The notes: generated by a model not told the origin, from the sequence alone. Counted from the stretch's first letter, positions 32,913 through 54,562 are shown. The stretch: 64,000 bases of DNA from a bacterium (GCA_963675755.2 CAXXMD010000003.1:608001-672000), one strand, 5' to 3'. Made by a program: numbers and translations.

Positions 32913-32923
32913 TTCTAACCTTC

Positions 32924-37664: not shown

Positions 37665-40481
37665 ATGGTAATATTGAAAAAAAATTATTTATTATTTATC
37701 TTGATAATTCTTTTGGGGGGCTGTTCAAAAGATTTTTCCCCTGATAAAAACAAAAAATATTTTGTGGGTTTTTCTCAATGCGTAAGTAATGATCTATGGC
37801 GTCAGTCCATGAATTATGAGATAAAGCTTGAAGCATCATTACATCCTGAAATTGAACTTTTAATTCTAGATGGCCAATCTAACAATCAAAAACAAATCAA
37901 TGACATTACTTATTTGATTGATCAGCAAGTTGATTTGTTAATTGTTTCCCCAAATGAAGCTGAGCCTCTAACGCCTATTGTGGAAAAAGCTTACAAAAGT
38001 GGAATTCCGGTAATCTTGCTGGACCGGAAAATTAACAGCGATTTATACAATACCTATATTGGCGCAGATAATTATGCAATTGGTTTTGAAGCCGGTTTAT
38101 ATGCAGTAAATCAATTAAAAAATGGCGGCAAGATATACGAAATTTGTGGATTGGCCGGTTCTTCACCCAGTTATGATAGACATGCAGGTTTTGCAGATGC
38201 TTTAAAATACAATGAAAACATTGAACTTTTGAAAAGTCAATATCACGATTGGGTAATAAAAGACACTCTTCAATTTCAGGAACTTTTATTCAATGAATTA
38301 AAAAAACACCCAAATATAAACATGATATATGGTCATAATGATGGATTGGCTGCTGGAGCCTTTATAGCGCTGAATAAAATGAACATGGCGCAAAAGATAA
38401 AATTTATTGGTATTGATGCCTTGCCCGGAGAAGGTGGTGGCCTTCAAATGGTATTGAATAAAGTCCTAGATGCCTCTTTTCTTTATCCAACAGGTGGGGA
38501 TGTTGCAATTCAAACAGCATTTAAAATATTAATTGGAGATACTGTTGATAAAAATATAAGCCTGGAATCTGTTCTTGTTGATTCAACAAATGCAAGATTG
38601 TTGCAAATAAAATCAGATCAAATCCATAATATCCGATCAAAAATTGAAACTCAAAATCAAATCTTGAACAGGCTATTCATTCAATACAATTCGCAGCGAT
38701 ATTTTGTTTTTACACTTGTTACAGCAATTTTTTTGCTGGCGGCTTTTCTTTTTTTACTGTTCCGTTCTTTACAGATCAATAAAATGATGAATCGTAAATT
38801 AAATGAAAAAAATCTGGCAATTGAAGAACATTTAATTGAACTTGAAAAGCAGCGTGACGAGTTATATCAGATGCAAGAAACTGTAAAAAAAGCGAATGAA
38901 TTTAAAATTCAATTTTTCACAAACATCTCTCATGAATTCCGAACTCCTCTTACTCTTATTTTAGGGACACTGGATCAATTAAAAAAACTAAACATCAAAG
39001 ACAATTATATTACCAAACAGTTGAATATTTTAAACAAAAACGCTGAAAGATTATTAAAGCTCATTAACGAATTAATGAACTTTAGAAAAATAGAAGCTCA
39101 AAAAGTCTCTCTAAATATTTATGAGCATGATATTGTAAGTTTCTTAAAAGATATATTAATATTCTTTGAAGGCTCGGCAGAAACAAAAAATATTAAATTA
39201 AACTTTTTTGCTCAACATGAACAAATGAATGTTTTTATTGATGCTATAAAATTTGAAAAAGTTATTTTTAATCTTCTTTCAAACGCTTTTAAATTCACCC
39301 CAGACAATGGAGAGATTACTCTATGTGTTATATATAATGAATGCATTGAAGATAATATTAGATGCATCGAAATTAGTGTTAAAGATACTGGTATTGGTAT
39401 ACCTGAGAATGAACTTGAACTTATATTTGAGCAGTTTCATAATATTGACCAAAATGGATATTCTTCAATAACAAGTACAGGTATAGGATTAGCCTTTAGC
39501 AAGAGAATAGTGACACTGCATCATGGAAACATAAGTGTAAAAAGTGAGGTCAATAAAGGCAGCACATTTACCATTCAACTGCCTTCTAATGCTGCTGCAT
39601 ATAAAAACAATGAAATCATAAATGATATGGCGGCTTTTAATTCCTTTGAGCACCTTGTTTCTGAGGAATTAGATAATTTACCGGAGCAAACTGTCAATCA
39701 AATAAATGTTATTGAAGATAATGCAGAAGTATTACTCGTTGTTGAGGACAATAAAGATGTTGTCCAGATGTTGAAAGATAATTTTGTCAAAGATTTTGAG
39801 ATCATTACAGCATACAATGGCAAAGAGGGTCTCGCATTAGCAAAAAAATATAAACCCAATATTATTATTAGCGATATAATGATGCCCATAATGGATGGCA
39901 ATGAGATGACAAAGTTATTAAAATCTGATATTGATACAAGCCACATTCCTATAATTTTACTCTCTGCCAAAACTACTGAAGAAAATAAAATAGAAGGTCT
40001 TGAATGCGGTGCTGATTATTATATCACAAAGCCATTCAACTTTAAAATCCTTGAATTAAAATTAAAAAATATCATAAAAAACAGAGAGAAAATTAAAGAA
40101 CATTTTTCCAAAGATATTCTGTTCTTTAAAAATGAACCACGGATCAAAGATCTTGACAAAGCGTTTCTTCAAAAAGTAATTGCACAGGCGGAAATGCAAA
40201 TATTGGATTCAAATTTATCTGTTGAAAATTTGGGTAAAACATTTGGAATGAACCGGCTTACTTTTTATCGAAAAATCAAAACAATTACAGGTCTTGCTCC
40301 AAGTGAATTTATAAAAACCATTCAGCTGCACAAAGCATCTGATCTTTTGAAAAATTCAGACTTGACCATTTCTGAAATTGCTTTCAAAGTTGGTTTTGAA
40401 ACCCCTTCATATTTTACAAAATGTTTTAAAAATGTCTTTAAAGTAAAACCTTCAGAATACCAGAAAAATTTTAACAATTAA
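37665..40481 (+). CDS. Hybrid two-component system with periplasmic sugar-binding sensor (BT1754-like)
   Basis: VGFSQC..DLWR binding-protein domain, TM helix, SHEFRTPL HisKA, NLLSNAFKFT/DTGIG HATPase, SDIMMP receiver, AraC HTH. Confidence 0.93.
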   Translation: MVILKKNYLLFILIILLGGCSKDFSPDKNKKYFVGFSQCVSNDLWRQSMNYEIKLEASLHPEIELLILDGQSNNQKQINDITYLIDQQVDLLIVSPNEAEPLTPIVEKAYKSGIPVILLDRKINSDLYNTYIGADNYAIGFEAGLYAVNQLKNGGKIYEICGLAGSSPSYDRHAGFADALKYNENIELLKSQYHDWVIKDTLQFQELLFNELKKHPNINMIYGHNDGLAAGAFIALNKMNMAQKIKFIGIDALPGEGGGLQMVLNKVLDASFLYPTGGDVAIQTAFKILIGDTVDKNISLESVLVDSTNARLLQIKSDQIHNIRSKIETQNQILNRLFIQYNSQRYFVFTLVTAIFLLAAFLFLLFRSLQINKMMNRKLNEKNLAIEEHLIELEKQRDELYQMQETVKKANEFKIQFFTNISHEFRTPLTLILGTLDQLKKLNIKDNYITKQLNILNKNAERLLKLINELMNFRKIEAQKVSLNIYEHDIVSFLKDILIFFEGSAETKNIKLNFFAQHEQMNVFIDAIKFEKVIFNLLSNAFKFTPDNGEITLCVIYNECIEDNIRCIEISVKDTGIGIPENELELIFEQFHNIDQNGYSSITSTGIGLAFSKRIVTLHHGNISVKSEVNKGSTFTIQLPSNAAAYKNNEIINDMAAFNSFEHLVSEELDNLPEQTVNQINVIEDNAEVLLVVEDNKDVVQMLKDNFVKDFEIITAYNGKEGLALAKKYKPNIIISDIMMPIMDGNEMTKLLKSDIDTSHIPIILLSAKTTEENKIEGLECGADYYITKPFNFKILELKLKNIIKNREKIKEHFSKDILFFKNEPRIKDLDKAFLQKVIAQAEMQILDSNLSVENLGKTFGMNRLTFYRKIKTITGLAPSEFIKTIQLHKASDLLKNSDLTISEIAFKVGFETPSYFTKCFKNVFKVKPSEYQKNFNN

Positions 40482-40683: not shown

Positions 40684-40716
40684 AATTGATACATCTCTTG
40701 CAGTAATTGATACATC
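40684..40716 (+). promoter_or_regulatory. Candidate HTCS (AraC) binding site: 12-bp direct repeat at 21-bp period
   Basis: AATTGATACATC at 40684 and 40705. Confidence 0.65.
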
Positions 40717-40913
40717 CATTCTATTTGATTTATTTAAAAAATATTATCTTAATCATAAAAATTACCGCATTGAAGCAAGCTTATAATTAACATTGTATTT
40801 CATTTGCCTGATTTTTAATAAAAACATTTTAATATGTAATAATCACCATGAGCAATATAGTTTCTATAAATAAAAATTTGATTTTGTTGTAATAAAATTT
40901 TTTTAACTATTTT

Positions 40914-40929
40914 GCTAAAACGTTTTAGC
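40914..40929. promoter_or_regulatory. Candidate LacI operator upstream of the TBDT operon
   Basis: Perfect 16-bp palindrome GCTAAAACGTTTTAGC. Confidence 0.75.
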
Positions 40930-41192
40930 TTTTATGTTTTATCATTGGCTTTTAATCAACACACAAGGTAGACAATCTTAAATATGAGTCCAGCATAATC
41001 AAGATCTTTTTGTTATGCAGAATAAAAGCTACAAATCAAAGACGCTGTTAAATAGCTTTTTGAATTATTTAACCGCCCCTTTTTTATAATAAATATTTAA
41101 TGATTAATAGTGTATATCAATATTTTCGAGGAGTAAAATGGAAATCAATAAAGAATATAGAATGAAAAAAAGAATAAGGAAAGGATTGGTTT

Positions 41193-43898
41193 ATGAAAAG
41201 ATTCACCATTGGTTTTCTCCTTCTTTTATGTCTGTCTGGAAATTTATTATCTCAGACAACCGGTAAAATTGCCGGATCCATTAAAGATGTTGAAACAGGG
41301 GAGCCTCTTGTAGGTGTAAACGTTATGGTCGATGGCACCTATTTAGGTGGAGCTTCAAATATAGAGGGAAACTACTTTATTTTGAATGTTCCTCCGGGGA
41401 AATACACTATCAAATTCATGTGTATTGGTTATGCAACAAAACTCATAACTGACGTTCAAGTATCTGTAAACCGCACTTTAACTTTATCAACGACAATGAG
41501 CCAGGAAGCTTTGGATCTTGGTGAAGAAATTATCGTTTCCGCAGACCGCGTTGCTATCAAAAAAGACCAGACGAGTTCAATTCGAAATGTATCATCAGAA
41601 GATATTAATGTTCTTCCTGTTGAAAGCACCGGAAGCGTTGTTGCTATGCAACCGGGTGTTGTTCAGGGCCACTTTCGTGGTGGTCGTAGTAATGAGACTA
41701 GCTACTTGATCGATGGTATGTCTGTCAATAATGGGCTTAACAGAGGGCAAATGATAGAGATTGATCCTGATGCGGTACAGGAAGTAGAAGTCATTACCGG
41801 TACGTTCAGCGCCAAATATGGACAGGCTATGAGCGGTATTGTCAATGCAGTAACAAAAGAGGGCGGTAAAGACTTTCATGGTAAAATTGAAGGGTATTTA
41901 GGAAACTATTTTACTACCCATGATGATGTATATATCGGCCTTGAGCCATCTCAAATGGACCGTAACGAAGATTATAAGGTAATGTTACACGGCCCTGTTT
42001 TTGGCGACAAGCTGACATTTTTCACAAGTGCCAGAGTTCAGGATAATGATGGCTATTTAAATGGAGTCAGACGGTTCAATGTAACGGACCAACCGGATTA
42101 TAGTTTGTACCAAGACAGTACCTCATATGATCCTGAAACCGGCGCATACCTTTATAACGAAAATACAGGTGACAATGAATATGTTCCTATGAGCTGGTCC
42201 GAATCCATAAATTTCAACGGCAAGCTGACATACAAAATGCAAAACTTGAAAATGTCATTAATGTATTTACGTAATCAGAGTGAAGGACAATCTTACAGCC
42301 ATTCCAGAAAATATAAACCCGATGGTCGTAGTAGAAGTCACAACAAAAGTCAGATGCTGACCTACCAGTTGAACCATATTTTGAGTCCGGAATTATTTTA
42401 TGAAGTCAAAGTATCATATTCAAAAGATATGGGGGGCAGTTATCTATATGAAGACCCACAGGATAGTCGCTACATTCATGACTCTTTTTCAACAAATTCA
42501 TCATATACAGGATTTGTCACAGGTGGTCAAGATAAAGGCTATTCCAAAACAACAAGTAAAAAAATGCTCGGTCGTTTTGACATAACCTGGCAGGCCAACT
42601 ATAATCATAATATTGAAGCGGGTTTTCAGGGTGAACAATTTGATTATGATTATTTAGGCGGTTCGATTTTAAATTATTATAGAAACACTTCAGCGTCAGA
42701 TTTCCTTTATGCACCAGAGTTGCCGTCTGATTCAACCGTATATACAGACAGCTACCAAAAGAAACCCTATCAATTTGCTGGTTGGATTTCAGACAAAATG
42801 GAATATAACAACATGGTTATTGATTTGGGTGTAAGAGGTGAATACTTTGATCCAAATACAACTTACCCTTCCAACTATAGAAATCCCAGTAACCTGCTTC
42901 AAAAAGAAGGCACAGAAGATTGGGTTAGTACATATCCAAAAGCAAAAGCTAAAATTAATATAGCCCCACGTTTAGGTTTATCTTATAAATTGGGTGAAAC
43001 AGCATTGCTGCGTTTTAGCTATGGCCACTTTTATCAATATCCCCCACATAGCACCATGTATCTCAACAGCTCTTATGTAATCTCACCTGGAGATTATGAG
43101 ACCACATTGGGTAATCCCAATGTTGACCCGGAGATGACTGTTAGTTATGAAATAGGTTTATGGCAGATGCTTAATGATTATATGGATCTTGAAGTCGCTC
43201 TTTGGTACAGAGATATTTATAACCTGTCCACAGTCAATATTGTTACCACCTATAATTCTGTTCGATATGGACTCTATGGCAATAAAGACTATGGAAACGC
43301 AAGAGGCCTCGAGCTGAAATACAATGCACATGTTGCAAACTTTTTTGCCGAAGTCAATTATACCCTACAATACACACGTGGTAATGCTGATAATCCTATC
43401 TTTACCTTTAGTCGTGCAGGTAGCAGCCAGGATCCTATTCCAACATTAATACCAATGAGTTGGGACCAGCGTCATACTGTCAATATGTCTATTGGATATA
43501 ACTTGAGCAAATGGGGTGTATCAGTAATGGGTTGGGCAGGATCAGGTTCTGCATACACATGGAGTCCAATCAGTGAAAACCCATTAAACCGAATTAATTT
43601 ATATCCAAATGGAGCAAGTAAACCTGCTCACTATAAATTTGATTTAAAAGCACATTATGACATTGCTACCATTATGGGAGCCAAATTTATTGCAACCTTA
43701 CGGGTATATAATCTTTTTGATCACTTGAACGAAAACAATGTAAACTCGAATACAGGACGCACCAACCAGGCGATTATCAAACCCAGCGACCTGTTAGGTT
43801 TTTATAGTGATTTTAGTACTTATGAAGAAAGTATTTACAGCCCCGCAAACTGGTCTGCGCCTCGATTAGTCAAATTGGGCCTTGGTATTTCGTTTTAA
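41193..43898 (+). CDS. TonB-dependent receptor
   Basis: TTGKIAG..D.ETGEPLVGVNV N-domain, HFRGGRSNE plug, GTFSAKYGQAMSGIVN, GNPNVDPE.TVSYE, WDQRH, C-terminal Phe. Confidence 0.93.
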   Translation: MKRFTIGFLLLLCLSGNLLSQTTGKIAGSIKDVETGEPLVGVNVMVDGTYLGGASNIEGNYFILNVPPGKYTIKFMCIGYATKLITDVQVSVNRTLTLSTTMSQEALDLGEEIIVSADRVAIKKDQTSSIRNVSSEDINVLPVESTGSVVAMQPGVVQGHFRGGRSNETSYLIDGMSVNNGLNRGQMIEIDPDAVQEVEVITGTFSAKYGQAMSGIVNAVTKEGGKDFHGKIEGYLGNYFTTHDDVYIGLEPSQMDRNEDYKVMLHGPVFGDKLTFFTSARVQDNDGYLNGVRRFNVTDQPDYSLYQDSTSYDPETGAYLYNENTGDNEYVPMSWSESINFNGKLTYKMQNLKMSLMYLRNQSEGQSYSHSRKYKPDGRSRSHNKSQMLTYQLNHILSPELFYEVKVSYSKDMGGSYLYEDPQDSRYIHDSFSTNSSYTGFVTGGQDKGYSKTTSKKMLGRFDITWQANYNHNIEAGFQGEQFDYDYLGGSILNYYRNTSASDFLYAPELPSDSTVYTDSYQKKPYQFAGWISDKMEYNNMVIDLGVRGEYFDPNTTYPSNYRNPSNLLQKEGTEDWVSTYPKAKAKINIAPRLGLSYKLGETALLRFSYGHFYQYPPHSTMYLNSSYVISPGDYETTLGNPNVDPEMTVSYEIGLWQMLNDYMDLEVALWYRDIYNLSTVNIVTTYNSVRYGLYGNKDYGNARGLELKYNAHVANFFAEVNYTLQYTRGNADNPIFTFSRAGSSQDPIPTLIPMSWDQRHTVNMSIGYNLSKWGVSVMGWAGSGSAYTWSPISENPLNRINLYPNGASKPAHYKFDLKAHYDIATIMGAKFIATLRVYNLFDHLNENNVNSNTGRTNQAIIKPSDLLGFYSDFSTYEESIYSPANWSAPRLVKLGLGISF

Positions 43899-43959
43899 GA
43901 ACTTTTGAATTAAAGGTGTGAATCTAATGAGAGGAAGAATTTCGAAAGGATTTTTAACT

Positions 43960-46900
43960 ATGAGGATAAAACTTTTTATTCTTTGTTTTGGATTATTATT
44001 TCTTAGCATAACCGACCTCTATGCTCAGGGGAAAACTTATGACGGTCCTCAAGACAGCGCAGGTGATCCATATCTGGAGCGCGAAGGTGTAATGTCAGGT
44101 AACCGTGTTCAATTGAATTTTAAAAACAATACGGAATTGGGTGGTTATCCCGTTGCTACAACCGCGTGGTGGCCAAAAGGTGTTGGTGGAAACAAAATGC
44201 ATGACAATATGGGTCTGTTAATAAGCTCAGCTGTCTGCATTACCCAAGATTCAATTCCGGTCACTGATCCTGATGAAATCAAAGCACTGGAAGCTCAGGG
44301 TCTGATTGATACTCTATTTTATTGCCAAACCAATTATAGAGAAGAAATGGACCGTGACCCTACCGGTCAGGTAGAATGGGGTTTTCATCCGGTTCCTGGC
44401 TATATGAACAATGCCAGTGAAACTCCGGCATTAAGCAATGATCCGGACTCATGGCCAACACACGGCTGGCTTTATACAGGACGCCAAACGCATTGGATGG
44501 GCGAATGGGATGGCCGTTTTGGTCGTGGCCAAATTAAAGCAGATTTAGAAGCATATTTTGTTGCCAACGATGCTCAGGATCTCGAATACCTGGGAGATGA
44601 CGACAAAGTTAAATATTATCCACGCAAAGATGTTAAAATTGGTGATATTGATGGCAGTGTGACTGTGCAAAAAGGAGAGCCCTGGGGTGGTCTGGGAATC
44701 AGAGTAAAACAAAGAGGTTTTCAGTGGAATAATCCCATGGCCCAGGACTGTATCTTTTGGGAATATACTGTTGCAAATATTTCAGACTATGATCTACCCA
44801 ATATGGCATTTGGTTACTGGCTTGACAATAATATTGGTGGTGAAAACACGGGTGAAGATGGTAATTTCAATAAAGTTATGAACTTGTCATATTGTTGGGA
44901 CACTGATGGAGTTGGTTCAGGTGGATATAAAACCGGAACCGCGGGTTATGCTTATCTTGAAAGTCCTGGTATTTTTAATGACTTTATAGATAATGATCAA
45001 GATGGTTTGGTCGATGAAGAACGAGATAATGATGCCGGTATGTTTATCGGCAAGTATGACGGTATAACAAATTTAGATGATTTTCTGTCTTTTTATGGCA
45101 AAACAGAAGAAGACCTGGTAGAGCATTGGTCAGGTGACGAAGATCAGGATTGGTCAGATGGTGAAGATACCAATAATGACGGAATTTATCAGGCAGATGA
45201 ATATGCCGGTGACGATATAGGTCTCGACGGTGTTTCTCCCAGTGAATTAAATTATACCGGTCCCGATGCTGATGGTACTGAATGTAATCACAAACCGGAC
45301 ATTGGAGAAGGTTACGCGGAACCAAACTTTGGCTGGACGGATGTAACAGAAACAGACATGTTGGGTTTAACAACATTGTTATTTTACGAAGCGCCTATAC
45401 ATACAGCGCCTTATGTAAACTGGTTCAGAAATGATGAATCTGTATATAGAAACATGACCTGTGGAATTCTGGAAGCCGGTGCCACACACATTGACAACCT
45501 GTTCCAGCTCTTTTCTACTGCGATCTTTCCGCTTTATCGTGGTCAAACTGAATTTATCTCAATTTCAGAACTACATACTTATGATGACCTTGCAGGTTTG
45601 ACTTCTGCTGAACACTCTGCTCCGGCACTCTTTACATTAAAAAATGTAGTTCAGCTTATATATGAAAAAGACTATCGTTTTGCTCAACCACCAGAAATGC
45701 CCAAACTGACTGCTGTTGCCGGTGATGGTTTTGTTCAATTAATGTGGGATGACCGTTCAGACCGGTTGACAAAGGAATCCTTTCTCAATGGTGAAAATGA
45801 CTTTGAAGGCTATAAAGTGTATCGTTCCACAGATCCGGATATGCTTGATCCTATGGTAATAACAGATGGTTATGGATCTGCAGCTTTTTCAAAACCTATT
45901 TTTCAATGCGATCTTAAAAACGAGTATGAAGGTTTTGCCACTTGGGGATTTTTGAATGGAACAGCTTATTATCTGGGTGACAACTCTGGTATAGCGTATT
46001 CATTTAAAGACGAAACCGTTCAAAATGGACGTACCTATTATTATGCCCTGGTAGCTTACGACTATGGTATTGAACCTGACAAACTTAAAGGTACCTCCCT
46101 CATATCTCAGGATGAAAATGCCGGTATCTCACCTTCTGAAAACAATGCTATTATTAGAAAAGATGATTCTGAAAACATAGAATTCATCGGAGCAAATGTG
46201 GCAATTGTTACCCCCGGTTCTGATGCTGCGGGAGAGGAAGTGACGGTTGATTTTCAAGTTGATGATAATGGTTCTATTGGTGGTGGTAAAATTGTTCCCA
46301 AAGTTATTGATATCAATTCATTAAAAGATGACCACGTCTATAAAATAAAATTCTCTTATAATCAGATTGATTCTGCTTACAGATACCATGCAGGTTATGG
46401 ATATAAATACACTGCCAATGGCTTAAAAGTCTATGATGTAACCGAAGATAACAGACTAGTTCTTTCAGACCTTTTAGGAAGTGGCGGCCCTGCCAACATG
46501 ACTTCCATTATTGAAAAGGACGACTATTACCACCTGGCTTCTTCCGAGCTCATGTGGACGGATATTTTTGATGGAATACAACTGGGCGTAAAAATGGATG
46601 CTGCATTGTCAGAACTCGATGTGGCAAACACAGGATGGATGCCTGGTGAATCTCCCATGAACATCCGCTATATTGATAACCTGGCAATGGAATGCTATAG
46701 CTGGGATTATAACATTGTCTTTTCCGATCAACCCCTGCATAAAACACAAATTACTCAGAGATATGCGGCTTATCTGGACGATGAAAATGGAAACAGATTA
46801 AATAAAGATGAATTGCTGGTTGAAGAAGAGTTTAACTTTAGAATTGAATGCCTGGATTTTGCCGATACTACCGGAGCACCTCGTGTTTTAGATATGCTGG

Positions 46901-47502
46901 TCCAGGACATGAATGCTAACGGCCAGTTTGACATTTTAGAAGATCGTATTTTGGTTGGTCCCTATAATGCAAATAAATTATGGGATGGCGTTTTGTTTAT
47001 CATTGATTTCCAACGTTGCGATGACGAAAGTGACTTGCCCAAAGCAAACGACGTTTATGCCATTCGCCACTTGAAACCGTGGTACAAAACCGATTCATTA
47101 ACATTCACAGTTTCTGCCGAAAAATTGATCAATACGGAAAGTGCAAAATCATTAATGGATTCTATCCGCGTGGTTCCAAATCCTTATGTTGCTACAAACA
47201 TGATGGAACCCTCAGTGGTCAATAAATATCTGAACCAGCGTAGAAGATTATTGTTTACGAATCTACCTGCCCAATGTACAATCAAAATCTTTACTGTTAG
47301 TGGAATGCTTGTACGGGAATTAAATAGCCCGGGAGATTGCTTGACAACCTTTTCAGGCTTTGGTGACAATAATACCGGTACTCTTCACTGGGATATGCTA
47401 TCCTGGGAAGGATTGGAAATAGCTGCCGGTATGTATTTATATCATGTTAAAGATGATGAGACCGGTGAAGAAAAAGTCGGCAAATTTGGTGTCATTAAAT
47501 AA
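43960..47502 (+). CDS. Large secreted protein with DxDxDG Ca-binding loops, Fn3-like domain and variant CTD
   Basis: Signal peptide; DNDQDGLVDE, DTNNDG, DFEGYKVYRS, NGRTYYYALVAYD; C-terminal IRVVPNPY...CTIKIFTVSG...WD...AAGMYLYHV...KFGVIK. Confidence 0.75.
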   Translation: MRIKLFILCFGLLFLSITDLYAQGKTYDGPQDSAGDPYLEREGVMSGNRVQLNFKNNTELGGYPVATTAWWPKGVGGNKMHDNMGLLISSAVCITQDSIPVTDPDEIKALEAQGLIDTLFYCQTNYREEMDRDPTGQVEWGFHPVPGYMNNASETPALSNDPDSWPTHGWLYTGRQTHWMGEWDGRFGRGQIKADLEAYFVANDAQDLEYLGDDDKVKYYPRKDVKIGDIDGSVTVQKGEPWGGLGIRVKQRGFQWNNPMAQDCIFWEYTVANISDYDLPNMAFGYWLDNNIGGENTGEDGNFNKVMNLSYCWDTDGVGSGGYKTGTAGYAYLESPGIFNDFIDNDQDGLVDEERDNDAGMFIGKYDGITNLDDFLSFYGKTEEDLVEHWSGDEDQDWSDGEDTNNDGIYQADEYAGDDIGLDGVSPSELNYTGPDADGTECNHKPDIGEGYAEPNFGWTDVTETDMLGLTTLLFYEAPIHTAPYVNWFRNDESVYRNMTCGILEAGATHIDNLFQLFSTAIFPLYRGQTEFISISELHTYDDLAGLTSAEHSAPALFTLKNVVQLIYEKDYRFAQPPEMPKLTAVAGDGFVQLMWDDRSDRLTKESFLNGENDFEGYKVYRSTDPDMLDPMVITDGYGSAAFSKPIFQCDLKNEYEGFATWGFLNGTAYYLGDNSGIAYSFKDETVQNGRTYYYALVAYDYGIEPDKLKGTSLISQDENAGISPSENNAIIRKDDSENIEFIGANVAIVTPGSDAAGEEVTVDFQVDDNGSIGGGKIVPKVIDINSLKDDHVYKIKFSYNQIDSAYRYHAGYGYKYTANGLKVYDVTEDNRLVLSDLLGSGGPANMTSIIEKDDYYHLASSELMWTDIFDGIQLGVKMDAALSELDVANTGWMPGESPMNIRYIDNLAMECYSWDYNIVFSDQPLHKTQITQRYAAYLDDENGNRLNKDELLVEEEFNFRIECLDFADTTGAPRVLDMLVQDMNANGQFDILEDRILVGPYNANKLWDGVLFIIDFQRCDDESDLPKANDVYAIRHLKPWYKTDSLTFTVSAEKLINTESAKSLMDSIRVVPNPYVATNMMEPSVVNKYLNQRRRLLFTNLPAQCTIKIFTVSGMLVRELNSPGDCLTTFSGFGDNNTGTLHWDMLSWEGLEIAAGMYLYHVKDDETGEEKVGKFGVIK

Positions 47503-47539
47503 GTTCACGAAAATTTTTAAAGATTGAAAGGATAAAGTA

Positions 47540-48601
47540 ATGTTAAGAGGACACCTTAGAGTTTCAATTTTGACATTTTTTTTACTGATAAGCATTCAGG
47601 GACTAGCTCAGCAACCCTATAGGGTTGGAACAACATCCGCTAGTTTTTTGGAAATTGGAATAGGCGCTGCAGGTAATGCCATGGGAGATGCATATGTTGC
47701 ATCAACCGGAGATATGTCATCCATTTATTGGAATCCTGCAGGTCTTGCTTTTTTGAAATCTAACGAAGCACTGTTTATGTATCAACCCTGGGTGGTTGAC
47801 ATTAATTCAATGTTTTCCGGATTCGCTATGCCATTACAGGGGTTAGGCACCATTGCAGTAGGCATATTTAGCCTCAATTATGGCGATATCGATGTAACAA
47901 CACTTGAATACCAGAATGGTACTGGTGAAAAATATACAGCAATGGATTACAACTTTAGTTTATCATATGCCCAAAGTATTGCTCAATGGTTTTCCTTTGG
48001 TGCCACATTTAAATACATCAGCTCAAAAATCTGGCATACCAACAGTCATGCAATTGCGGCTGATTTGGGTGTACTTGTTCAAACCCCGTTCTTCTCACCT
48101 AACAGCAAGAATGAAGATGGTCTTCGAATTGGTATGAGCATATCAAATTATGGTTCAAAGATGGAATACGATGGTGATGATTTGCTGATTCCGGTAGACA
48201 TTGACGTAGATGCTAACGGTAATTATCAAAATCTTCAGGGGAAATATAAAATGTCTGAATGGGAATTACCACTCATTTTCCGGGTTGGTATTGCCGTTAC
48301 TCCTATCTCTTTGGGAAACCAAAAATTAGTCCTGGAGGCTGACGCCCTGCATCCAAACAACATGGGTGAATCCATTAATGCCGGTGCAGAATATAAATTT
48401 TTTGCCCCGGGATATGGAGATTTTTCTCTACGGGCAGGTTACAAAGCCTTGTTTTTAGAAAAATCTAATTATGGGCCCACTTTTGGAGCTGGTTTAAATT
48501 ATCATCTTTCTCCAAATCTGTCATTCAATATTGATTATGCCTATCGTACTCTGGGAGTATTGGGTAATATTCATTGCAGCAGCTTTGGTGTACAATTTTA
48601 A
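47540..48601 (+). CDS. PorV/PorQ-family outer-membrane beta-barrel (UPF0164)
   Basis: GTTSASFLEIGIGA...AMGDAY, SIYWNPAGLA, LPLIFRVG, LRAGY, IDYAY, C-terminal Phe. Confidence 0.88.
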   Translation: MLRGHLRVSILTFFLLISIQGLAQQPYRVGTTSASFLEIGIGAAGNAMGDAYVASTGDMSSIYWNPAGLAFLKSNEALFMYQPWVVDINSMFSGFAMPLQGLGTIAVGIFSLNYGDIDVTTLEYQNGTGEKYTAMDYNFSLSYAQSIAQWFSFGATFKYISSKIWHTNSHAIAADLGVLVQTPFFSPNSKNEDGLRIGMSISNYGSKMEYDGDDLLIPVDIDVDANGNYQNLQGKYKMSEWELPLIFRVGIAVTPISLGNQKLVLEADALHPNNMGESINAGAEYKFFAPGYGDFSLRAGYKALFLEKSNYGPTFGAGLNYHLSPNLSFNIDYAYRTLGVLGNIHCSSFGVQF

Positions 48602-48661
48602 TTACCATCCAATAATTGATAACTCTTTGAACAAGAGTTTATAATAGATATAGGAGGCACA

Positions 48662-49477
48662 ATGAAATATAGGATTTTAATTCTGTTTGTGGCGATAGTT
48701 AGCTTTGGAATTGTTGCGTGTGATTTTAATAGCCATACTGAGCCAGAATTGAATTACGACAAGGCAAAAATATTAGGAGATGAAATATATATAAATCAAT
48801 CGGACGAAAGACCGCAGGGAATTGATTCGCTGTATATTAATGAAGGCGATACATTGCTGCTTAAACTCACTACCCAGCTATTGGAAGATCCTGAATATCA
48901 GTGGATAATTGAAGATAACAGTGTTTTCGAAATTCTACCCATTGCAGATGATCCAACTTCGTTTTATGCAGTTGCCAAAACTGATAGCGGAGCAACAACC
49001 AGTTTTACACTAAAAGACAACATTAATGAAGCAAAAAAACAAATGCAAGTTATTGTGACTAAATTCTGGGCGGATCCCGATATATATATATTGCTGGGCC
49101 GTTTTGGCGGTCACTGTTATTACATCTCTCGTTCAAAAATCACCTGGCCTGAAGCTAATTACAACTGTGAACTTGCCGGCGGATATTTGCCTTGCATTGC
49201 AACCCAGGAAGAGCACTCTTTTCTTTTCAATGCAATGATGGATCTTGATATGGGTGAAACATGGATCGGTATTCGTTATGAACCCACTGGTGAAGGTGGT
49301 TTTACACTCCTGAATTGGATTAATGGAGATGAACTAACCTATGAATATTTTAAAAGCAAAGACGGTGTTGATGGTTTTAATGCAAGATACTTTTTCGCCA
49401 TGTTAACTACCGAAGGCGGTCTTTGGTACAACTATGCTGTTGCTGACCGGTGTAACTACTTTTTGGAACTTGAATAA
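48662..49477 (+). CDS. Lipoprotein with C-terminal C-type lectin-like domain
   Basis: IVAC lipobox; FGGHCYY..TWPEANYNC..GGYL..I...EE..FL...WIG...W.NG...W...YFLE. Confidence 0.78.
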   Translation: MKYRILILFVAIVSFGIVACDFNSHTEPELNYDKAKILGDEIYINQSDERPQGIDSLYINEGDTLLLKLTTQLLEDPEYQWIIEDNSVFEILPIADDPTSFYAVAKTDSGATTSFTLKDNINEAKKQMQVIVTKFWADPDIYILLGRFGGHCYYISRSKITWPEANYNCELAGGYLPCIATQEEHSFLFNAMMDLDMGETWIGIRYEPTGEGGFTLLNWINGDELTYEYFKSKDGVDGFNARYFFAMLTTEGGLWYNYAVADRCNYFLELE

Positions 49478-49507
49478 AAGCACCGCTTCTCAAACAAAAT
49501 AAACTCG

Positions 49508-49543
49508 TTAAATGTCCGATCTTTATTTAGATCGGACATTTAA
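49508..49543. terminator. Intra-operon stem-loop
   Basis: 15-bp perfect inverted repeat TTAAATGTCCGATCT-ttattt-AGATCGGACATTTAA. Confidence 0.65.
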
Positions 49544-49581
49544 TTCAATCATTACAATTATTAAAATGTTGGTTAATTACC

Positions 49582-51075
49582 ATGAAGTATAAAATTTTAA
49601 TATTGATATTATTTCTTTTTTCTTGCAGTACAAAAACACCCAAAGAGCCTCAGGAAAAAATCCTTGTAGACATTGACGGCAAGGCTACTATTAGTGTTAA
49701 CGAATTTTTACGCCGTGCCGAATATGTTCCAAGACCAGACTATTGTAAAGCAAATACATATATCCATAAAAAAATCATATTAAACTCACTCATTGCAGAA
49801 AAGTTACTTGCACTTGAAGCCGGGAATGATTCCCCCTTGTTGGAAAATATAGAGTTTCAAAACTATATCAAAGGTCATAAAGAACAGGCAATGCGTCAAT
49901 ATATGCATCATGTTGAAGCTACAGATAAAGTTGTTTTAGACAATGCTGAATTAACAAATGCATATAAATTTGCAGGTCGTGAATATGATGTTGCTTATTT
50001 CACAATCGTTGATAGTTCCGTTGCAGAAAAAGCACATGATGAACTGGTACAGAATCCTCAACAATTTGATGAATTCTATTTTCAAATGACGGGTCAAAAA
50101 AATGTACCAAATCGTAAAGTTCAATGGAACAGTGATGAGCACGTAAAGCTGCATCAAACTTTATTCTCACAAGACATTACCAAGGGACAAGTGCTGTCAC
50201 CAATCAAATTTGATGAAAATGGTTATCTTTTTATCAAAATACTTGGCTGGACAGATACTAAAGTCATTACAGAAAAACAGCAGCGAGAAAGACTTGATCA
50301 GATAACCGAAAAATTAACAGAGATTAAAGCTAGTGCCATTTGGGAAAATCGTGTTTCTGAAATTATGCGTGGTAAACGTATGGATTTTAACAAAGACGTT
50401 TTCAATAAAATGGCAGAAATTTTATATGCTTCTTATTTCCCAACATCAGAAGAAAAAAAGGATATTGCTATTAACCAATTATGGCAACAGGAAGATGAAC
50501 AGAACCCAAAATCATTACAAGATATGTCCAATGAGGTGTTTTTACAAGAACCTTTTTTCACTATTGATGGTAACGTGTGGACAGTTGATGATTTTCGGAA
50601 TGCCCTCATGTCTCACCCACTTGTGTTCCGAACCAATAAAGTTAATCCCAATGAATTCCCCCAACAGTTACGTCTCGCTATTGCAGACCTTGTTCGGGAT
50701 CATTTTATAACCCAACAAGCTTATAAAGCAGGTTACGATAAAGTCAATATTGTTGAAAGAAATGTCAACATGTGGAAGGATACTTTTTTTGCATTAAATG
50801 AAAAACACCAATTTTTAGATTCTGTACATGAAAACAGAGATTTTGCAAAAAATTATCATGAAATACTAGATGAAACTTTGAATCCATACATCAACAAGCT
50901 ACAGGAAAAATATTACAAAAAAGTCAAACTGGATTTCAAGACATTTGAAGACATCTCTCTTTCTTCTATAGATTTATTGGTTATGCACCAGGACCAACCA
51001 TATAAATATGTTGTACCATTATTTCCAATAATCACTAACGACCATTTGATAGAATATGTAGATAAAATTCATTAA
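49582..51075 (+). CDS. Lipoprotein, SurA/PpiC chaperone-like
   Basis: LFSC lipobox; ISVNEFLRRAEY...LNSLIAEKLLALEA SurA-N-like helix; GQVLSPI..GYLFIKI degenerate parvulin end. Confidence 0.6.
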   Translation: MKYKILILILFLFSCSTKTPKEPQEKILVDIDGKATISVNEFLRRAEYVPRPDYCKANTYIHKKIILNSLIAEKLLALEAGNDSPLLENIEFQNYIKGHKEQAMRQYMHHVEATDKVVLDNAELTNAYKFAGREYDVAYFTIVDSSVAEKAHDELVQNPQQFDEFYFQMTGQKNVPNRKVQWNSDEHVKLHQTLFSQDITKGQVLSPIKFDENGYLFIKILGWTDTKVITEKQQRERLDQITEKLTEIKASAIWENRVSEIMRGKRMDFNKDVFNKMAEILYASYFPTSEEKKDIAINQLWQQEDEQNPKSLQDMSNEVFLQEPFFTIDGNVWTVDDFRNALMSHPLVFRTNKVNPNEFPQQLRLAIADLVRDHFITQQAYKAGYDKVNIVERNVNMWKDTFFALNEKHQFLDSVHENRDFAKNYHEILDETLNPYINKLQEKYYKKVKLDFKTFEDISLSSIDLLVMHQDQPYKYVVPLFPIITNDHLIEYVDKIH

Positions 51076-51080
51076 GACAC

Positions 51081-51146
51081 AAAGGAGGTGATACAAAAAG
51101 CTACTCATTTTTACGTAATAATATTTAAAGGAGGTGATAAGAAAAA
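51081..51146 (+). promoter_or_regulatory. Two strong Shine-Dalgarno-like motifs (AAAGGAGGTGATA) with no start codon at canonical spacing
   Basis: Copies at 51081 and 51127, in the leader of 51294..54179. Confidence 0.5.
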
Positions 51147-51293
51147 CTGTTGATCAATTCGGAATATTCAAAACCAGACTTGATCAAGAAAAAGTATCTT
51201 TTGTTTTGAAATGTGATAAAATCGAATAATTCGAAAGAAACGCAGATCAATTCATAATTACTACTCATTTGCTACGTTAGGAGAAATGAAAAC

Positions 51294-54179
51294 ATGTTTA
51301 AAACAAAACTACTAGTACTTTGCGGACTTGTCTTTACATTCTTTATGTTTGGATCATTGTCTGCTAAAGAATCAAAAACTACTACAAATACTGTCGATGC
51401 TGTCAAAGTATGGGCAAATGAAATGATGGATCCTGATCCGGAAAAACTCAATACCAACAATGGCAATCCGGTTCGTTACGGAACCAAAGCTGAACCCGGC
51501 TCTGAAAACATTGTTCGCTGGTGCGTTCAAAATGCAGAAGACTGGATGTTAATCAATTCTGATGATCCTGCAAGTGGTCCTTATTCCATGACCATTAGTA
51601 TTGGTGGAGAACGCATTCCGTCTGACAATTGCTGGCTTGATTTACGTCGGGAAGATGCTCCTGTAGCTGGTTATAACGTTCCTTTTGATGCCACTGGTAC
51701 CGACCGGGTTACTTTTTGGATCAAAGCTGAACCTGGTACAGCTCCATTGTGGTTCCTGGTACAGGGTTTTCAGCCTGACTATGATGGCACCACCTACTCT
51801 GGCGACAAACAGGAAACTGTTAATGCGTTTATCGATGGTGAAACCATTATCGTTAAAGACGCAGACGGTGGTTTAAAAGTATTGCGTGACAATCACTTTA
51901 ACGGTGAATGGCAATTTGTTAGTCTGCCATGGGAATTCTTGACAATGTCAGATTCAGCTGCTGTTGCTGAATTGCTACCCTGGAGTTTGGCATGGGAGGG
52001 TTCTTCTGCAGATTCTCGCGATGATGTTGCTTTTAGAGTTTCTGAAGTTCGTACAGTTAAATGGTTCACCAAACCTGCAAGTGAATTCCTCAAAGATCAA
52101 TATTGGGAATCTGATGACAACCTGTGGGGTCCTTATGGTATCAATCCTGAACGGGCTACATGGGAAATTGATGAAATTATGTTTGACACTTTTAATACTG
52201 ATGAAATTGATGACTGCTTGACACCCGAAGTTGATGTTTGGGCAAATGAAATGATGGATCCTGATCCGGAAAAACTCAATACCAACAATGGCAATCCGGT
52301 TCGTTACGGAACCAAAGCAGAACCCGGCTCTGAAAATATTGTTCGCTGGTGCGTTCAAAATGCAGAAGACTGGATGTTAATCAATTCTGATGATCCTGCA
52401 AGTGGTCCTTATTCCATGACCATTAGTATTGGTGGAGAACGCATTCCGTCTGACAATTGCTGGTTGGATTTACGCCGCGAAGATGCTCCTGTAGCTGGTT
52501 ACAATGTTCCGTTTGATGCCAGCAATACTGACAGAGTTACTTTTTGGATCAAAGCTGAACCTGGTACAGCTCCATTGTGGTTCCTGGTACAGGGCTTTCA
52601 GCCTGACTATGATGGTACCACCTACTCTGGCGACAAACAGGAAACTGTTAATGCGTTTATCGATGGTGAAACCGTTATCGTTAAAGATGGAAACGGTGGT
52701 TTAAAAGTATTGCGTGACAATCACTTTAACGGCGAATGGCAATTTGTTAGTCTGCCATGGGAATTCCTGACAATGTCAGATTCAGCTGCTGTTGCTGAAT
52801 TGCTGCCTTGGAGTTTGGCATGGGAAGGCTCTTCTGCAGATTCTCGCGATGATGTTGCTTTTAGAGTTTCTGAAGTACGTACTGTTAAATGGTTCACCAA
52901 ACCTGCAAGTGAATTCCTCAAAGATCAATATTGGGAATCTGCTGACAACCTGTGGGGTCCTTATGGTATTAATCCTGAACGGGCTACATGGGAACTTGAT
53001 GAAATTAAATTCCAAAAATCTAATTCTTGTGAATCATATCCTGCAGAAATTGCGGTATGGGACAATGCAATGATGGATCCTGATCCGGAAAAACTCAATA
53101 CCAACAATGGCAACCCGGTTCGTTACGGAACCAAAGCTGAACCCGGCTGTGAAACTATAGTTCGCTGGTGTGTTCAAAATGCTGAAGACTGGATGCTAAT
53201 CAACTCTGACAATCCTGCAAGTGGTCCTTATTCTATGACTATTAGTATTGGTGGAGAACGCATTCCGTCTGACAATTGCTGGTTGGATTTACGTCGCGAA
53301 GATGCTCCTGTAGCTGGTTACAATGTTCCTTTTGACGCAAGTGAAACAGATCGTGTAAGTTTCTGGATCAAAGCTGAACCTGGTACAGCTCCAGTTTGGT
53401 TCCTGGTACAGGGTTTTCAGCCAGACTATGATGGCACCACTTATTCTGGTGACAAACAGGAAACTGTTAATGCATTTATCGATGGTGAAACCGTTATTGA
53501 TATCAATGAATTAGGTGAATTGGCAGTTGTTAGAGACAGACATTTTACAGGTGAATGGCAATTTGTTAGTTTGCCATGGAAATTCCTGACAATGTCAGAT
53601 TCTGCTGCTGTTGATGCCATACTGCCTTGGAGTTTGGCATGGGAAGGTTCTTCTGCGGATAGTCGCGATGATGTTGCATTCAGAACTTCCGAAGTACGTA
53701 CCGTTAAATGGTTCACCAAACCTGCAAGTGAATTCCTCAAAGATCAATATTGGGAATCTGCCGACAACCTGTGGGGTCCTTATGGTATTAATCCTGAACG
53801 GGCTACATGGGAAATTGATGCAGTGTATTTCACATCCGGTTTTAAAGCACGTGAAGGTTTCACAACTGGTATTGAAGATTTGGATAAAGAAAGAATTCCT
53901 GCTTCTTATACTCTTTACAATGCATATCCAAATCCATTTAACCCAAGCACCACAATTCGCTACACAATTCCGGTATCAAACATGGTAACCGTTGATATTT
54001 ATAATGTTATGGGTCAAAAAATCCGTACGCTGGTTAATGAATATAAATCAGCAGGTACCTATGATATGGTATGGGATGGTCGTAACGATGCTGGTAACAA
54101 CATTTCCTCCGGAATTTATTTTGTCAAAATGCAAGCAAGCCATTTTAATTCAGTACAAAAGGTTACTTTGATTAAATAA
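51294..54179 (+). CDS. Secreted protein with three near-identical ~275-aa CBM-like repeats plus CTD
   Basis: Signal peptide; 3x WANEMMDPDPEKL...PFDA..TDRVTFWIKAE...GEWQFVSLPW...ATWEIDEI; AYPNPFNP CTD. Confidence 0.85.
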   Translation: MFKTKLLVLCGLVFTFFMFGSLSAKESKTTTNTVDAVKVWANEMMDPDPEKLNTNNGNPVRYGTKAEPGSENIVRWCVQNAEDWMLINSDDPASGPYSMTISIGGERIPSDNCWLDLRREDAPVAGYNVPFDATGTDRVTFWIKAEPGTAPLWFLVQGFQPDYDGTTYSGDKQETVNAFIDGETIIVKDADGGLKVLRDNHFNGEWQFVSLPWEFLTMSDSAAVAELLPWSLAWEGSSADSRDDVAFRVSEVRTVKWFTKPASEFLKDQYWESDDNLWGPYGINPERATWEIDEIMFDTFNTDEIDDCLTPEVDVWANEMMDPDPEKLNTNNGNPVRYGTKAEPGSENIVRWCVQNAEDWMLINSDDPASGPYSMTISIGGERIPSDNCWLDLRREDAPVAGYNVPFDASNTDRVTFWIKAEPGTAPLWFLVQGFQPDYDGTTYSGDKQETVNAFIDGETVIVKDGNGGLKVLRDNHFNGEWQFVSLPWEFLTMSDSAAVAELLPWSLAWEGSSADSRDDVAFRVSEVRTVKWFTKPASEFLKDQYWESADNLWGPYGINPERATWELDEIKFQKSNSCESYPAEIAVWDNAMMDPDPEKLNTNNGNPVRYGTKAEPGCETIVRWCVQNAEDWMLINSDNPASGPYSMTISIGGERIPSDNCWLDLRREDAPVAGYNVPFDASETDRVSFWIKAEPGTAPVWFLVQGFQPDYDGTTYSGDKQETVNAFIDGETVIDINELGELAVVRDRHFTGEWQFVSLPWKFLTMSDSAAVDAILPWSLAWEGSSADSRDDVAFRTSEVRTVKWFTKPASEFLKDQYWESADNLWGPYGINPERATWEIDAVYFTSGFKAREGFTTGIEDLDKERIPASYTLYNAYPNPFNPSTTIRYTIPVSNMVTVDIYNVMGQKIRTLVNEYKSAGTYDMVWDGRNDAGNNISSGIYFVKMQASHFNSVQKVTLIK
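51411..53820 (+). repeat. Intragenic tandem triplication (periods 828 and 819 bp)
   Basis: Units start at 51411, 52239 and 53058; long identical DNA stretches with mostly synonymous differences. Confidence 0.95.
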
Positions 54180-54205
54180 ATTCATTGTTAAATTAAGCTT
54201 TACAA

Positions 54206-54237
54206 TAAACGAGGAGCAAAATATTGCTCCTCGTTTA
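54206..54237 (+). terminator. Terminator-like hairpin after the repeat protein
   Basis: TAAACGAGGAGCAA-aata-TTGCTCCTCGTTTA. Confidence 0.75.
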
Positions 54238-54562
54238 AATATTATAAATCAAACCCTAATGAGTCATGTGTTCCAGTCATTAAGGTTTTAATACAAAGGA
54301 TGATACTTGAAAAAACAACATGAATAGATAAAATGACCTGCCCAAATGTTGTTTCTTTAATTATTATCTTTTGCGTTTAACAAAAGGATGTTTTGAAAAG
54401 TAAAAAAAATATCAATATATTTTCTGGCCCTAATAAAGAGCCACTGATTCTTGTATAATATAAATGAAAAAAGCTGCTTAATATAAAATTACAAGCATTG
54501 CATCGCAACGCTTACATGAATGTTCGATTGAATGGCATATCAAGTAGTATGAGGTTACGGAG

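Follow-up and report, generated by a model that had tools for sequence, protein, structure and literature searches.

A conserved trio of TonB-dependent transporter, large secreted protein and PorV-family barrel as a possible outer-membrane uptake module in a locus without SusD

Introduction

TonB-dependent glycan import is known structurally almost solely through the SusC/SusD systems of the Bacteroidota, in which SusD acts as a lid on SusC. The locus described here raises the question of what may serve as the extracellular partner of a TonB-dependent transporter (TBDT) when no SusD is encoded beside it. It occupies positions 41,193 to 54,179 of a bacterial DNA stretch of 64,000 nucleotides (GCA_963675755.2, CAXXMD010000003.1:608001-672000), referred to below as the window. 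In a preliminary description of this region, six co-oriented genes under sugar-type regulators were reported, and a locus-specific barrel of the PorV family was proposed to tether a large protein, with a variant C-terminal domain (CTD) of the T9SS (type IX secretion system), beside the transporter as a functional replacement for the SusD lid. The six open reading frames (ORFs) are indeed found on the + strand, downstream of regulators of the sugar type, and, as claimed, no SusD was detected: none of the 35 ORFs of the window that were scanned (10 of them at E<=0.01 and 25 at E<=1e-5) matches a SusD-type Pfam family. The locus does not contain the adjacent susC-like/susD-like pair that defines a Bacteroidota-type polysaccharide utilization locus: the gene found 3' of the TBDT encodes a large secreted protein, here called BIG, and is followed by the gene of the barrel, here called PorVL. 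The central features are the following.

41193..43898, + strand: TBDT, a TonB-dependent transporter of a module-specific subfamily, assigned by its Pfam domains
43960..47502, + strand: BIG, a secreted protein of 1180 aa from a family without a name; a GTG at 43918 is also open
47164..47499, + strand: variant CTD of BIG (aa 1083-1194, counted from the GTG), which can be aligned with the type-A CTDs of the window
47540..48601, + strand: PorVL, a dedicated outer-membrane barrel of the PorV/PorQ family (NF033709)

The reading that is favored here, with a probability of roughly 0.55, is that the locus represents a conserved outer-membrane uptake module, in which BIG is anchored by PorVL and works with the TBDT as its extracellular partner. 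By analogy, this module may be a counterpart of the SusC/SusD glycan-uptake machine of the Bacteroidota. The earlier interpretation is retained in part: a dedicated PorV-family anchor for BIG and a conserved triad are both supported, but the module cannot be extended to six genes.

Synteny of the triad

Species-representative genomes (one per species) were scanned, giving at least 607 matching stretches, of which at least 524 were confirmed by tblastn; 79 loci were kept, and are designated by L numbers where they have to be told apart. The neighboring genes in these loci were determined by BLASTP of the window proteins against the locus ORFs, combined with profile searches. TBDT and BIG are neighbors in all 76 loci in which this can be assessed; in the other three (L044, L063 and L079) BIG is at a contig edge. 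PorVL is present in all 72 loci in which it could be assessed, the remaining seven ending within or just after BIG. In 67 loci its gene is the next one 3' of BIG; in three (L071, L073 and L078) it is placed between the genes of TBDT and BIG, and in two (L056 and L072) it is found one or two genes farther on. This recurrence of TBDT, BIG and PorVL in every assessable locus is far beyond chance. Conservation of the triad across relatives had been set beforehand as a test of the proposal, and the counts above uphold it. The conserved core consists of these three genes, to which a SurA/PrsA-like lipoprotein is often added.

According to the record labels, the 79 loci comprise 21 Marinimicrobia, 12 of the Calditrichota type, 8 KSB1, 2 Ignavibacteria, 10 'uncultured Cytophagia', one 'Bacteroides sp.', one 'Methanobacteriota archaeon' and 24 unclassified bacteria. 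Some of these labels seem at odds with the range otherwise seen for the module (KSB1, Calditrichota and Marinimicrobia), namely those of L063 ('Methanobacteriota archaeon'), of L007 ('Bacteroides sp.') and of the ten 'uncultured Cytophagia'; the likely cause is loose taxonomic labelling or contigs assigned to the wrong bin.

The association of the three genes can also be followed in assemblies with more than one module. Eight assemblies carry two modules each, and every one of these 16 modules has its own PorVL. Complete triads are available for five of these assemblies, and in 5 of their 10 modules all three genes have the same nearest module (L002 with L008, L060 with L076, L030 with L024, L064 with L057, and L071 with L078); the nearest module differs between genes in the other five. 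Pairwise identities were compared over 59 triads (58 loci and the window), and gave Spearman coefficients of 0.907 for TBDT and BIG, 0.627 for TBDT and PorVL, and 0.567 for BIG and PorVL. The coefficient of 0.907 agrees with the co-evolution that had been suggested as a check, but does not amount to proof since the genes share descent. A distinct arrangement can be observed in L078, where positions 5227-21667 hold, in this order, a partial PorVL, a TBDT, a PorVL and three BIG paralogues, all of which share about 48-49% identity with the BIG of the window.

PorVL and the variant CTD of BIG

PorVL belongs to the PorV/PorQ family, as it reaches 207.6 bits with the model NF033709 (cut-off 90), residues 31-353 being aligned with profile positions 1-326. 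Its scores lie below all equivalog cut-offs, with 99 bits for PorV (NF033710, cut-off 250), 91.6 for PorQ (NF033711, cut-off 220) and 70.2 for PorV2 (cut-off 325), and these three matches cover the N-terminal two-thirds or less of the protein (up to about 225 of 353 residues). The same four NCBIfam models are matched by 38 of 38 PorVL orthologues. As judged from the equivalog cut-offs, PorVL is a separate subfamily, neither PorV nor PorQ. The assertion that a PorV-family barrel dedicated to the locus directly follows BIG is thus supported: PorVL falls under the PorV and PorQ cut-offs, is supplied as an own copy to each module and travels with BIG.

The CTD of BIG carries the motif VVPNPY...GKFGVIK. 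It had been set apart from six CTDs of the YPNPFNP type encoded elsewhere in the window, and is indeed a genuine variant in comparison with all six of these type-A CTDs, although only five of them carry YPNPFNP, the sixth having YPNPLNP. Neither Por_Secre_tail (PF18962) nor TIGR04183 matches the CTD of BIG at E<=0.01. It can nevertheless be aligned with the six type-A CTDs at PNP, G, W, GxY and K, with insertions of 14 and 9 aa, and a beta-sandwich is predicted at this place in the AlphaFold model. Within the family, VVPNPY, G1129, G1171 and GK(1189)F show little or no variation. The sole NCBIfam match of BIG is to the C-terminus of PorZ (E 5.2e-7); the full-length PorZ model (NF052228) gives 28.5 bits against a cut-off of 260, with only residues 1080-1194 of BIG aligned on profile positions 670-757. 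A search for a T9SS type-B CTD was likewise negative, no NCBIfam model besides PorZ matching BIG at E<=0.01. Since its CTD aligns with T9SS type-A CTDs, BIG is likely to be T9SS cargo; the presence of a T9SS in the host is itself inferred from the six type-A CTD genes of the window.

The interaction between the two partners was addressed by modeling PorVL residues 24-353 together with BIG residues 1060-1194, each with its alignment. A score of 0.90 was obtained in all three runs, and the best of three controls reached 0.00; the mark used for this comparison is attained by 116 of 157 solved complexes and by 2 of 215 mismatched pairs. At least 87% of the contacts coincide among the runs, with a partner pLDDT of at least 72. 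The predicted interface coincides with the most conserved positions of the CTD (1084-1089, 1123-1132, 1166-1178 and 1185-1194), and the invariant K1189 is placed in contact with PorVL residues 114 and 117. This contact echoes that of a conserved CTD lysine with Asn87 and Phe115 of PorV (PMC10994853, partial text). The model supports the binding of BIG's CTD by PorVL. For the proposal that the PorV-type barrel tethers its cognate CTD, the contrast between 0.90 and 0.00 is consistent with a dedicated anchoring as far as PorVL and the CTD are concerned.

A conserved loop insertion specific to this family is found within the CTD, at 47182-47247 (BIG aa ~1089-1110). N1094, M1096, E1097, V1100, N1102, Q1107, R1109 and R1110 are invariant or nearly invariant in this loop, which has the lowest model confidence within the CTD (pLDDT 65-69). 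On the basis of the model, it is a candidate for a contact with a third partner.

The body of BIG

The ATG at 43960, already retained in the preliminary description, is the likelier start of BIG because, in the ORF read from the GTG, the match to homologues and to the family profile sets in only at residue 15-16. As read from the sequence, this ATG is followed by a leader of the signal-peptidase-I type. BIG belongs to a large family without a name. No Pfam family is matched by any of 26 members at E<=0.01, the family profile finds no PDB sequence at E<=0.1, and a search of the ESM Atlas returned unnamed clusters only. At E<=1e-3, 1874 relatives were found among 8000 scored candidates, the best 120 being 49-98% identical to BIG and nearly all labelled 'hypothetical'; Caldithrix abyssi has at least two BIG paralogues. 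The 26-member profile matches 5649 cluster representatives with E<=1e-3, of which 2965 reach 1e-10 and 622 reach 1e-30, and more distant relatives of BIG share 30-45% identity with it.

An AlphaFold model built from 63 diverse sequences (pLDDT 88.3, pTM 0.81) replaced a first one built from 26 sequences, in which the pLDDT was 60.1 and fell under 50 across the N-terminal half. The predicted structure is a compact multi-domain body rather than beads on a string. On the basis of secondary structure and alignments, the leader is followed by a largely beta N-terminal region of some 550 residues, by a segment at about 592-715, by beta-sandwich domains at 735-1070 and by the CTD at 1083-1194. The N-terminal region contains several invariant Asp-rich motifs of the DxDxDG-like type (D358/D360/D362, D433/G435/D437/G438 and others), which we take to be similar to calcium sites. 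The segment at about 592-715 is read here as fibronectin-III-like, from fold matches to arrays of fibronectin III (FN3) domains and from how some homologues are labelled in their source; Pfam fn3 matches are absent there from all 26 members scanned. Fold searches with both BIG models gave domain-level or low-TM matches only, none above a TM-score of 0.22. The best match is PorZ (5m11, E 4e-8, TM 0.09/0.13), and FN3 arrays and PorU were found as well.

BIG is conserved at 47-69% identity across loci with differing sets of enzymes. As BIG and the TBDT remain about 45-70% identical despite these differences, they look like core parts of a machine rather than a substrate-specific binder or enzyme; the specificity would lie in the enzyme cargo and in proteins with carbohydrate-binding modules (CBMs), or here in the lectin and repeat proteins described below.

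The transporter

The domains of the TBDT are CarboxypepD_reg (CarbopepD_reg_2), Plug and TonB_dep_Rec_b-barrel in Pfam, and its nature as a TonB-dependent receptor is established by 43.9 bits with PF07715 (cut-off 23.9) and 92 bits with PF00593 (cut-off 27). The SusC/RagA model TIGR04056 gives 67.3 bits against a cut-off of 368.25, with a match confined to the N-terminus (residues 25-226). The module-type TBDTs of the related loci are 43-72% identical to that of the window in BLASTP.

The window contains a second TBDT, of 965 aa, on the - strand (20730-23627), directly followed by a 563-aa protein with a type-A CTD (18686-20377). Its identity with the module TBDT is 35%, over only 145 N-terminal aa, and no SusD, PorV-family or BIG-like gene is found beside it. 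This TBDT was considered as a copy of the module, and rejected on the basis of this restricted identity and of the lack of a second BIG, PorVL or chaperone-like gene in the window. The region 18686-23627 may represent a simpler arrangement, limited to a TBDT and a CTD partner.

Glycan context

A survey of carbohydrate-active enzymes (CAZymes) was carried out in 35 of the 79 loci, picked for long flanks and for spread. The 157 ORFs scanned were up to two upstream and up to three downstream on the same strand, plus those inside the module. Genes for glycoside hydrolases (GHs), carbohydrate esterases (CEs) or CBM proteins were found in 27 of the 35 loci. A protein of about 800-1200 aa combining CBM9 and a CTD is present in 20 of them, mostly directly 5' of the TBDT, and GH16 in 17, frequently accompanied by GH3, GH5+CBM6, GH30 or GH2 as well as by sodium-solute symporters and LacI genes. 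T9SS CTDs are borne by many of the enzymes. In the Marinimicrobia-type loci the module lies among GH16, GH3 and GH5 genes, a set that presumably targets beta-glucans such as laminarin. No CAZyme or CBM neighbor was found in eight of the 35 loci (L002, L005, L007, L010, L032, L071, L073 and L078), four of which form part of the subclade of the window. The expected association with CAZymes therefore holds for 27 of the 35 loci surveyed, but for only one of five in the window's own subclade. Overall, the module is clearly tied to glycan loci; the carbohydrate link of the window's own locus, as it can be read from its genes, rests on the regulators and on the lectin domain.

The CAZyme genes of the window itself are found on the opposite strand, at 1-17.5 kb, more than 23 kb upstream of the module. 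They belong to a large cluster of CAZyme and catabolic genes on the - strand (1076-28857), which comprises two CTD proteins with polysaccharide-lyase domains, AXE1, a GH29 fucosidase, GH109, GH3, GH28 and a BD-FAE esterase, and then a set of GatZ/KbaZ, PfkB, SIS and DeoR genes, presumably similar to a pathway of the tagatose/galactosamine type.

Accessory genes, regulators and surroundings

The other genes of the co-oriented run and the regulators found upstream of it are the following.

48662..49477, + strand: lectin lipoprotein, with a C-terminal C-type lectin-like domain (PF00059); accessory of the subclade
49582..51075, + strand: SurA/PrsA-like lipoprotein, a frequent fourth gene of the module, on family-level profile evidence
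51294..54179, + strand: repeat protein, type-A cargo of the T9SS containing three nearly identical units, each of about 275 aa; local accessory
36385..37401, + strand: LacI-family regulator (Pfam LacI HTH and Peripla_BP_1); context gene upstream
37665..40481, + strand: hybrid two-component regulator (Pfam Peripla_BP_4, E 3.5e-40, with HisKA, HATPase_c, Response_reg and HTH_18)

The lectin lipoprotein has the lipobox IVAC, read from the sequence. Its C-type lectin domain scores 26.8 bits with PF00059 (cut-off 22.6, E 9.2e-6), residues 159-229 covering only positions 2-68 of the 107 in the profile. Homologues are found in 12 of the 79 loci, namely in 11 of the 12 closest relatives of BIG (L011 being the exception) and in L032, where the match is weak and to a longer protein located upstream.

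The SurA/PrsA-like lipoprotein has the lipobox LFSC, the cysteine of which is nearly invariant in its family. A SurA-like lipoprotein had been announced at this position, and this assignment can be maintained at the level of the family: SurA_N_2 is matched by 12 of 29 members (best E 2.1e-6), Rotamase_2 by 9 and SurA_N_3 by 8, all at E<=1, and the 29-member profile matches the structure of the foldase PrsA (4wo7) with an E of 5e-4. The window protein itself, however, has no Pfam match, and no match of the SurA or parvulin type at E<=1. A lipoprotein chaperone of the SurA/PrsA kind is a reasonable family-level assignment for this fifth gene. Of the 63 loci that could be assessed for this gene, 49 contain it, and in 37 of these 49 it lies at most 300 nt from the module. 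In L018, where this gene is missing, an ORF located 3' of PorVL (15091-17271) combines PPIC-type rotamase, radical-SAM/SPASM and SEC-C motifs; it may be a fusion created by ORF calling or a different substitute of the parvulin type.

The repeat protein contains direct repeats spaced by 828 and 819 nt within 51399-54000, the compared stretch of 300 nt being 90-94% identical at the DNA level, which implies a recent internal triplication. The 828-nt period was not detected by Tandem Repeats Finder, and was found by a separate repeat search. The C-terminus matches Por_Secre_tail, FlgD_ig and TIGR04183 (32.6 bits, cut-off 23), and is therefore a type-A CTD. Among the 79 loci, a full-length homologue is found only in L001, a near-identical genome; elsewhere the match is limited to the CTD, with a coverage of about 10%. 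A repeat unit compared with the ESM Atlas matched clusters without names and, as a weak lead, SGBP_B_XBD at 0.91, and the PDB sequence search matched only the FlgD-like CTD region. The designation of 51294-54179 as a repeat binder is thus unproven, this weak lead being the only one to the fold of the repeat. The notion of a conserved six-gene unit was abandoned: the lectin gene is restricted to 12 of the 79 loci, and the repeat protein, full-length in one, is shared elsewhere only through its CTD.

The hybrid regulator upstream of the module combines a periplasmic sugar-binding domain, a kinase, a receiver and an AraC helix-turn-helix domain according to Pfam. A full-length homologue was found by BLASTP only in L001 among the 79 loci; in 10 of these loci, LacI-type genes are located in the vicinity of the module. 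A scan for promoters and terminators over 40300-54700 showed no excess over shuffled sequences, with 54 promoters compared with 50.6 and 7 terminators compared with 10. A perfect hairpin (49508-49543) with a 15-bp stem, 5 GC pairs and a 6-nt loop can be observed in the 104-nt gap between the genes of the lectin and SurA-like lipoproteins. It was scored as terminator-like on the minus strand; being palindromic, it could function on both strands. Two segments, 28857-30851 and 32023-32924, contain no ORF of 150 aa or more, and lie in the lower-GC part of the window (0.32-0.35).

Proposed mechanism and alternative explanations

BIG, which has both a Sec signal and a T9SS CTD of variant type, would be exported by the T9SS. 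Its CTD would then be captured by PorVL, a non-covalent anchor that would hold BIG permanently at the cell surface, in a manner comparable to PorQ with PorZ, to PorV with PorU, or to the PorP/SprF-type barrels with their type-B cargo. BIG would act as the extracellular partner of the adjacent TBDT, either by capturing the substrate or by capping the barrel, and the substrate specificity would be supplied by the enzymes and CBM proteins that the same loci export through the T9SS. The SurA/PrsA-like lipoprotein would probably be the periplasmic chaperone of one large component.

In support of this mechanism, the HMM match of BIG and its best fold matches, PorZ and PorU, are T9SS proteins anchored to barrels. 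Several observations weigh against it. The correlation between pairwise identities can come from shared descent and protein length alone. The three tandem BIG genes of L078, served by one TBDT and one complete PorVL, are a poor fit to a lid in 1:1 proportion. The chaperone-like gene is absent from 14 of 63 assessable loci, and the conserved loop 1089-1110 lies nearly outside the predicted PorVL interface, with residue 1092 as its only contact. No enzyme gene is found within the co-oriented run of the window's module, and a CAZyme neighbor is present in only one of the five loci scanned in its subclade (L003, GH78). Finally, a complex of type-A CTDs bound to the loops of PorV inside SprA has been solved (PMC10994853, partial text), so that the high score of the complex model may reflect likeness to this complex rather than binding or retention, and the authors of the same work suggest that the affinity of the CTD for PorV drops after leaving the translocon SprA.

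A stronger version of the mechanism can be formulated, in which TBDT, BIG and PorVL form one stable complex, with BIG, its CTD uncleaved, as the lid or capture subunit and an independently evolved counterpart of SusD. The loop insertion 1089-1110 would be the contact with the transporter, and the assembly would be a general glycan-import machine of KSB1, Calditrichota, Marinimicrobia/SAR406, Ignavibacteriota and, on annotation only, Rhodothermota. This version is put forward tentatively, the odds being rather against it. It is also unlikely, to a further degree, that PorVL is only a specialized transient shuttle that conveys the variant CTD through the T9SS translocon, in the way of PorP/SprF-type proteins and their cognate type-B cargo, after which BIG would be released or fixed to the surface by a sortase, and would act as a glycan binder, free or linked to lipopolysaccharide, with no fixed place at the TBDT. 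Cognate shuttles for variant CTDs are documented (PMC12618676, partial text), the lower affinity suggested for PorV outside SprA (PMC10994853, partial text) and the three BIG genes per PorVL of L078 point in the same direction, and the complex model is blind to the distinction between transient and permanent binding. Shuttling alone, however, accounts neither for the strict adjacency of the TBDT (76 of 76 assessable loci) nor for the TBDT-BIG coefficient of 0.907, and PorZ and PorU, the nearest HMM and fold matches of BIG, remain bound to their barrels.

Two other functions can be envisaged for BIG. As a stand-alone surface enzyme of a new CAZyme family, it would make the first cut on the substrate beside the transporter. 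Its N-terminal region of 550 aa, which has no match to a known fold, contains numerous invariant acidic and aromatic residues, the loci are rich in enzymes, and there are weak fold matches to GH116 chains (probability 0.98-0.99, TM 0.15/0.22). These TM-scores are nevertheless far under the level of a fold match, and the invariant acidic residues are found within DxDxDG-like motifs, presumably typical of calcium sites. It is hardly to be expected that one and the same enzyme would keep about 50% identity between loci as different as those with GH16, GH9, GH30, GH92, GH78 or CE2. Moreover, a stand-alone enzymatic nature of BIG had been named as an outcome that would defeat the proposal, and no catalytic family was found in Pfam, NCBIfam or the PDB sequences; this explanation appears improbable. 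More improbable still, BIG, PorVL and the SurA-like lipoprotein would constitute a device for the assembly or quality control of the transporter, external to the working uptake complex and comparable to the FadL-like barrel BamG, by which the surface protein BamH is held in the BAM complex of the Bacteroidota. In BtBAM, a surface protein is indeed bound by the loops of a FadL/PorV-like barrel (PMC12578637, partial text), and the chaperone-like lipoprotein accompanies the module in 49 of the 63 assessable loci. Against such a device, BIG is probably T9SS cargo, as its CTD aligns with T9SS type-A CTDs, and genomes carry several paralogous modules, each with its own TBDT in a substrate-specific locus, which points to a task within the individual locus rather than in general biogenesis. 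An uptake module in which BIG is held by PorVL beside the TBDT is thus the explanation retained here.

Relation to known systems

The module resembles the SusC/SusD (RagA/RagB) utilisomes in that the gene of a large extracellular partner comes immediately after that of a TBDT, which has a carboxypeptidase-regulatory-like domain at its N-terminus, with GHs, binding proteins, regulators of the LacI or hybrid two-component type and sugar symporters nearby. It differs from them in several respects. The window has no SusD-type family, and the module TBDT fails the SusC/RagA model (67 against 368 bits). The partner is a Sec/CTD protein with its own PorV-type barrel instead of a lipoprotein, and the enzymes and binders of the loci have T9SS CTDs instead of lipid anchors.

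A surface protein held on a barrel of the PorV/PorQ family is also found in the T9SS attachment complex of P. gingivalis, where PorZ is held on PorQ and PorU on PorV (PMC12365241, partial text), and PorZ and PorU are among the best fold matches of BIG. BIG, however, is not PorZ (28.5 against 260 bits, over its last 115 residues only), and PorVL is neither PorV nor PorQ. In addition, BIG and PorVL occur beside a TBDT and in many paralogous copies, whereas PorZ and PorQ occur once per genome as part of the secretion machinery. A comparable pairing of variant-CTD cargo with a dedicated outer-membrane barrel is provided by type-B CTD cargo, which is genetically linked to a PorP/SprF-like barrel for its secretion or anchorage (PMC9143113 and PMC12618676, partial texts). 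PorVL nevertheless belongs to the PorV/PorQ family, and the CTD of BIG is type-A-derived and has no type-B model match at E<=0.01. The type-B cargoes named in the available parts of these two papers are adhesins or motility proteins, and not neighbors of a TBDT.

The closest arrangement in print is the alginate locus tonB-hypA-hypB-hypC of R. marinus, which consists of a TonB-dependent receptor (2805 nt), a protein with a T9SS type-A sorting domain (2181 nt), a PorV/PorQ family protein (1056 nt) and a hypothetical protein (1398 nt), followed by alginate lyases with sorting domains and, at the end, by a PD40 domain-containing protein (PMC9530828, partial text). The gene order is the same as in the module, this likeness being one of annotation words alone, and hypA is much shorter than BIG. 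In the available part of that paper, the genes next to tonB are listed as hypothetical and no role is proposed for them. The gene order alone is thus already in print, uninterpreted (PMC9530828), and the known kinds to which the module relates are the TBDT glycan loci and the anchoring by PorV-family barrels. A full-text literature search, which did not extend to subscription journals and supplements, found no paper that describes or interprets the module, and a term search of the Caldithrix abyssi genome paper found no mention of SusC, SusD or T9SS. A protein with TPR and PD40 (TolB-like propeller) domains is also found 3' of the module in the window (55772-58375), and a PD40 protein occupies a similar position in L032 (16799-18349). 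Given its presence in the window, in L032 and in the R. marinus alginate locus, the PD40 protein may be a recurrent accessory of the module loci.

Significance

The module is common, as indicated by the 524 or more confirmed stretches and by the 622 clusters of BIG at E<=1e-30, and its central protein of 1180 aa is missing from Pfam. Its carriers include very abundant heterotrophs of marine waters and sediments (Marinimicrobia/SAR406, Calditrichota and KSB1). If the mechanism proposed here is true, it would join type IX secretion and anchoring with TonB-dependent nutrient uptake, two fields hitherto separate, and would provide targets in cultured species such as Caldithrix abyssi and Rhodothermus marinus.

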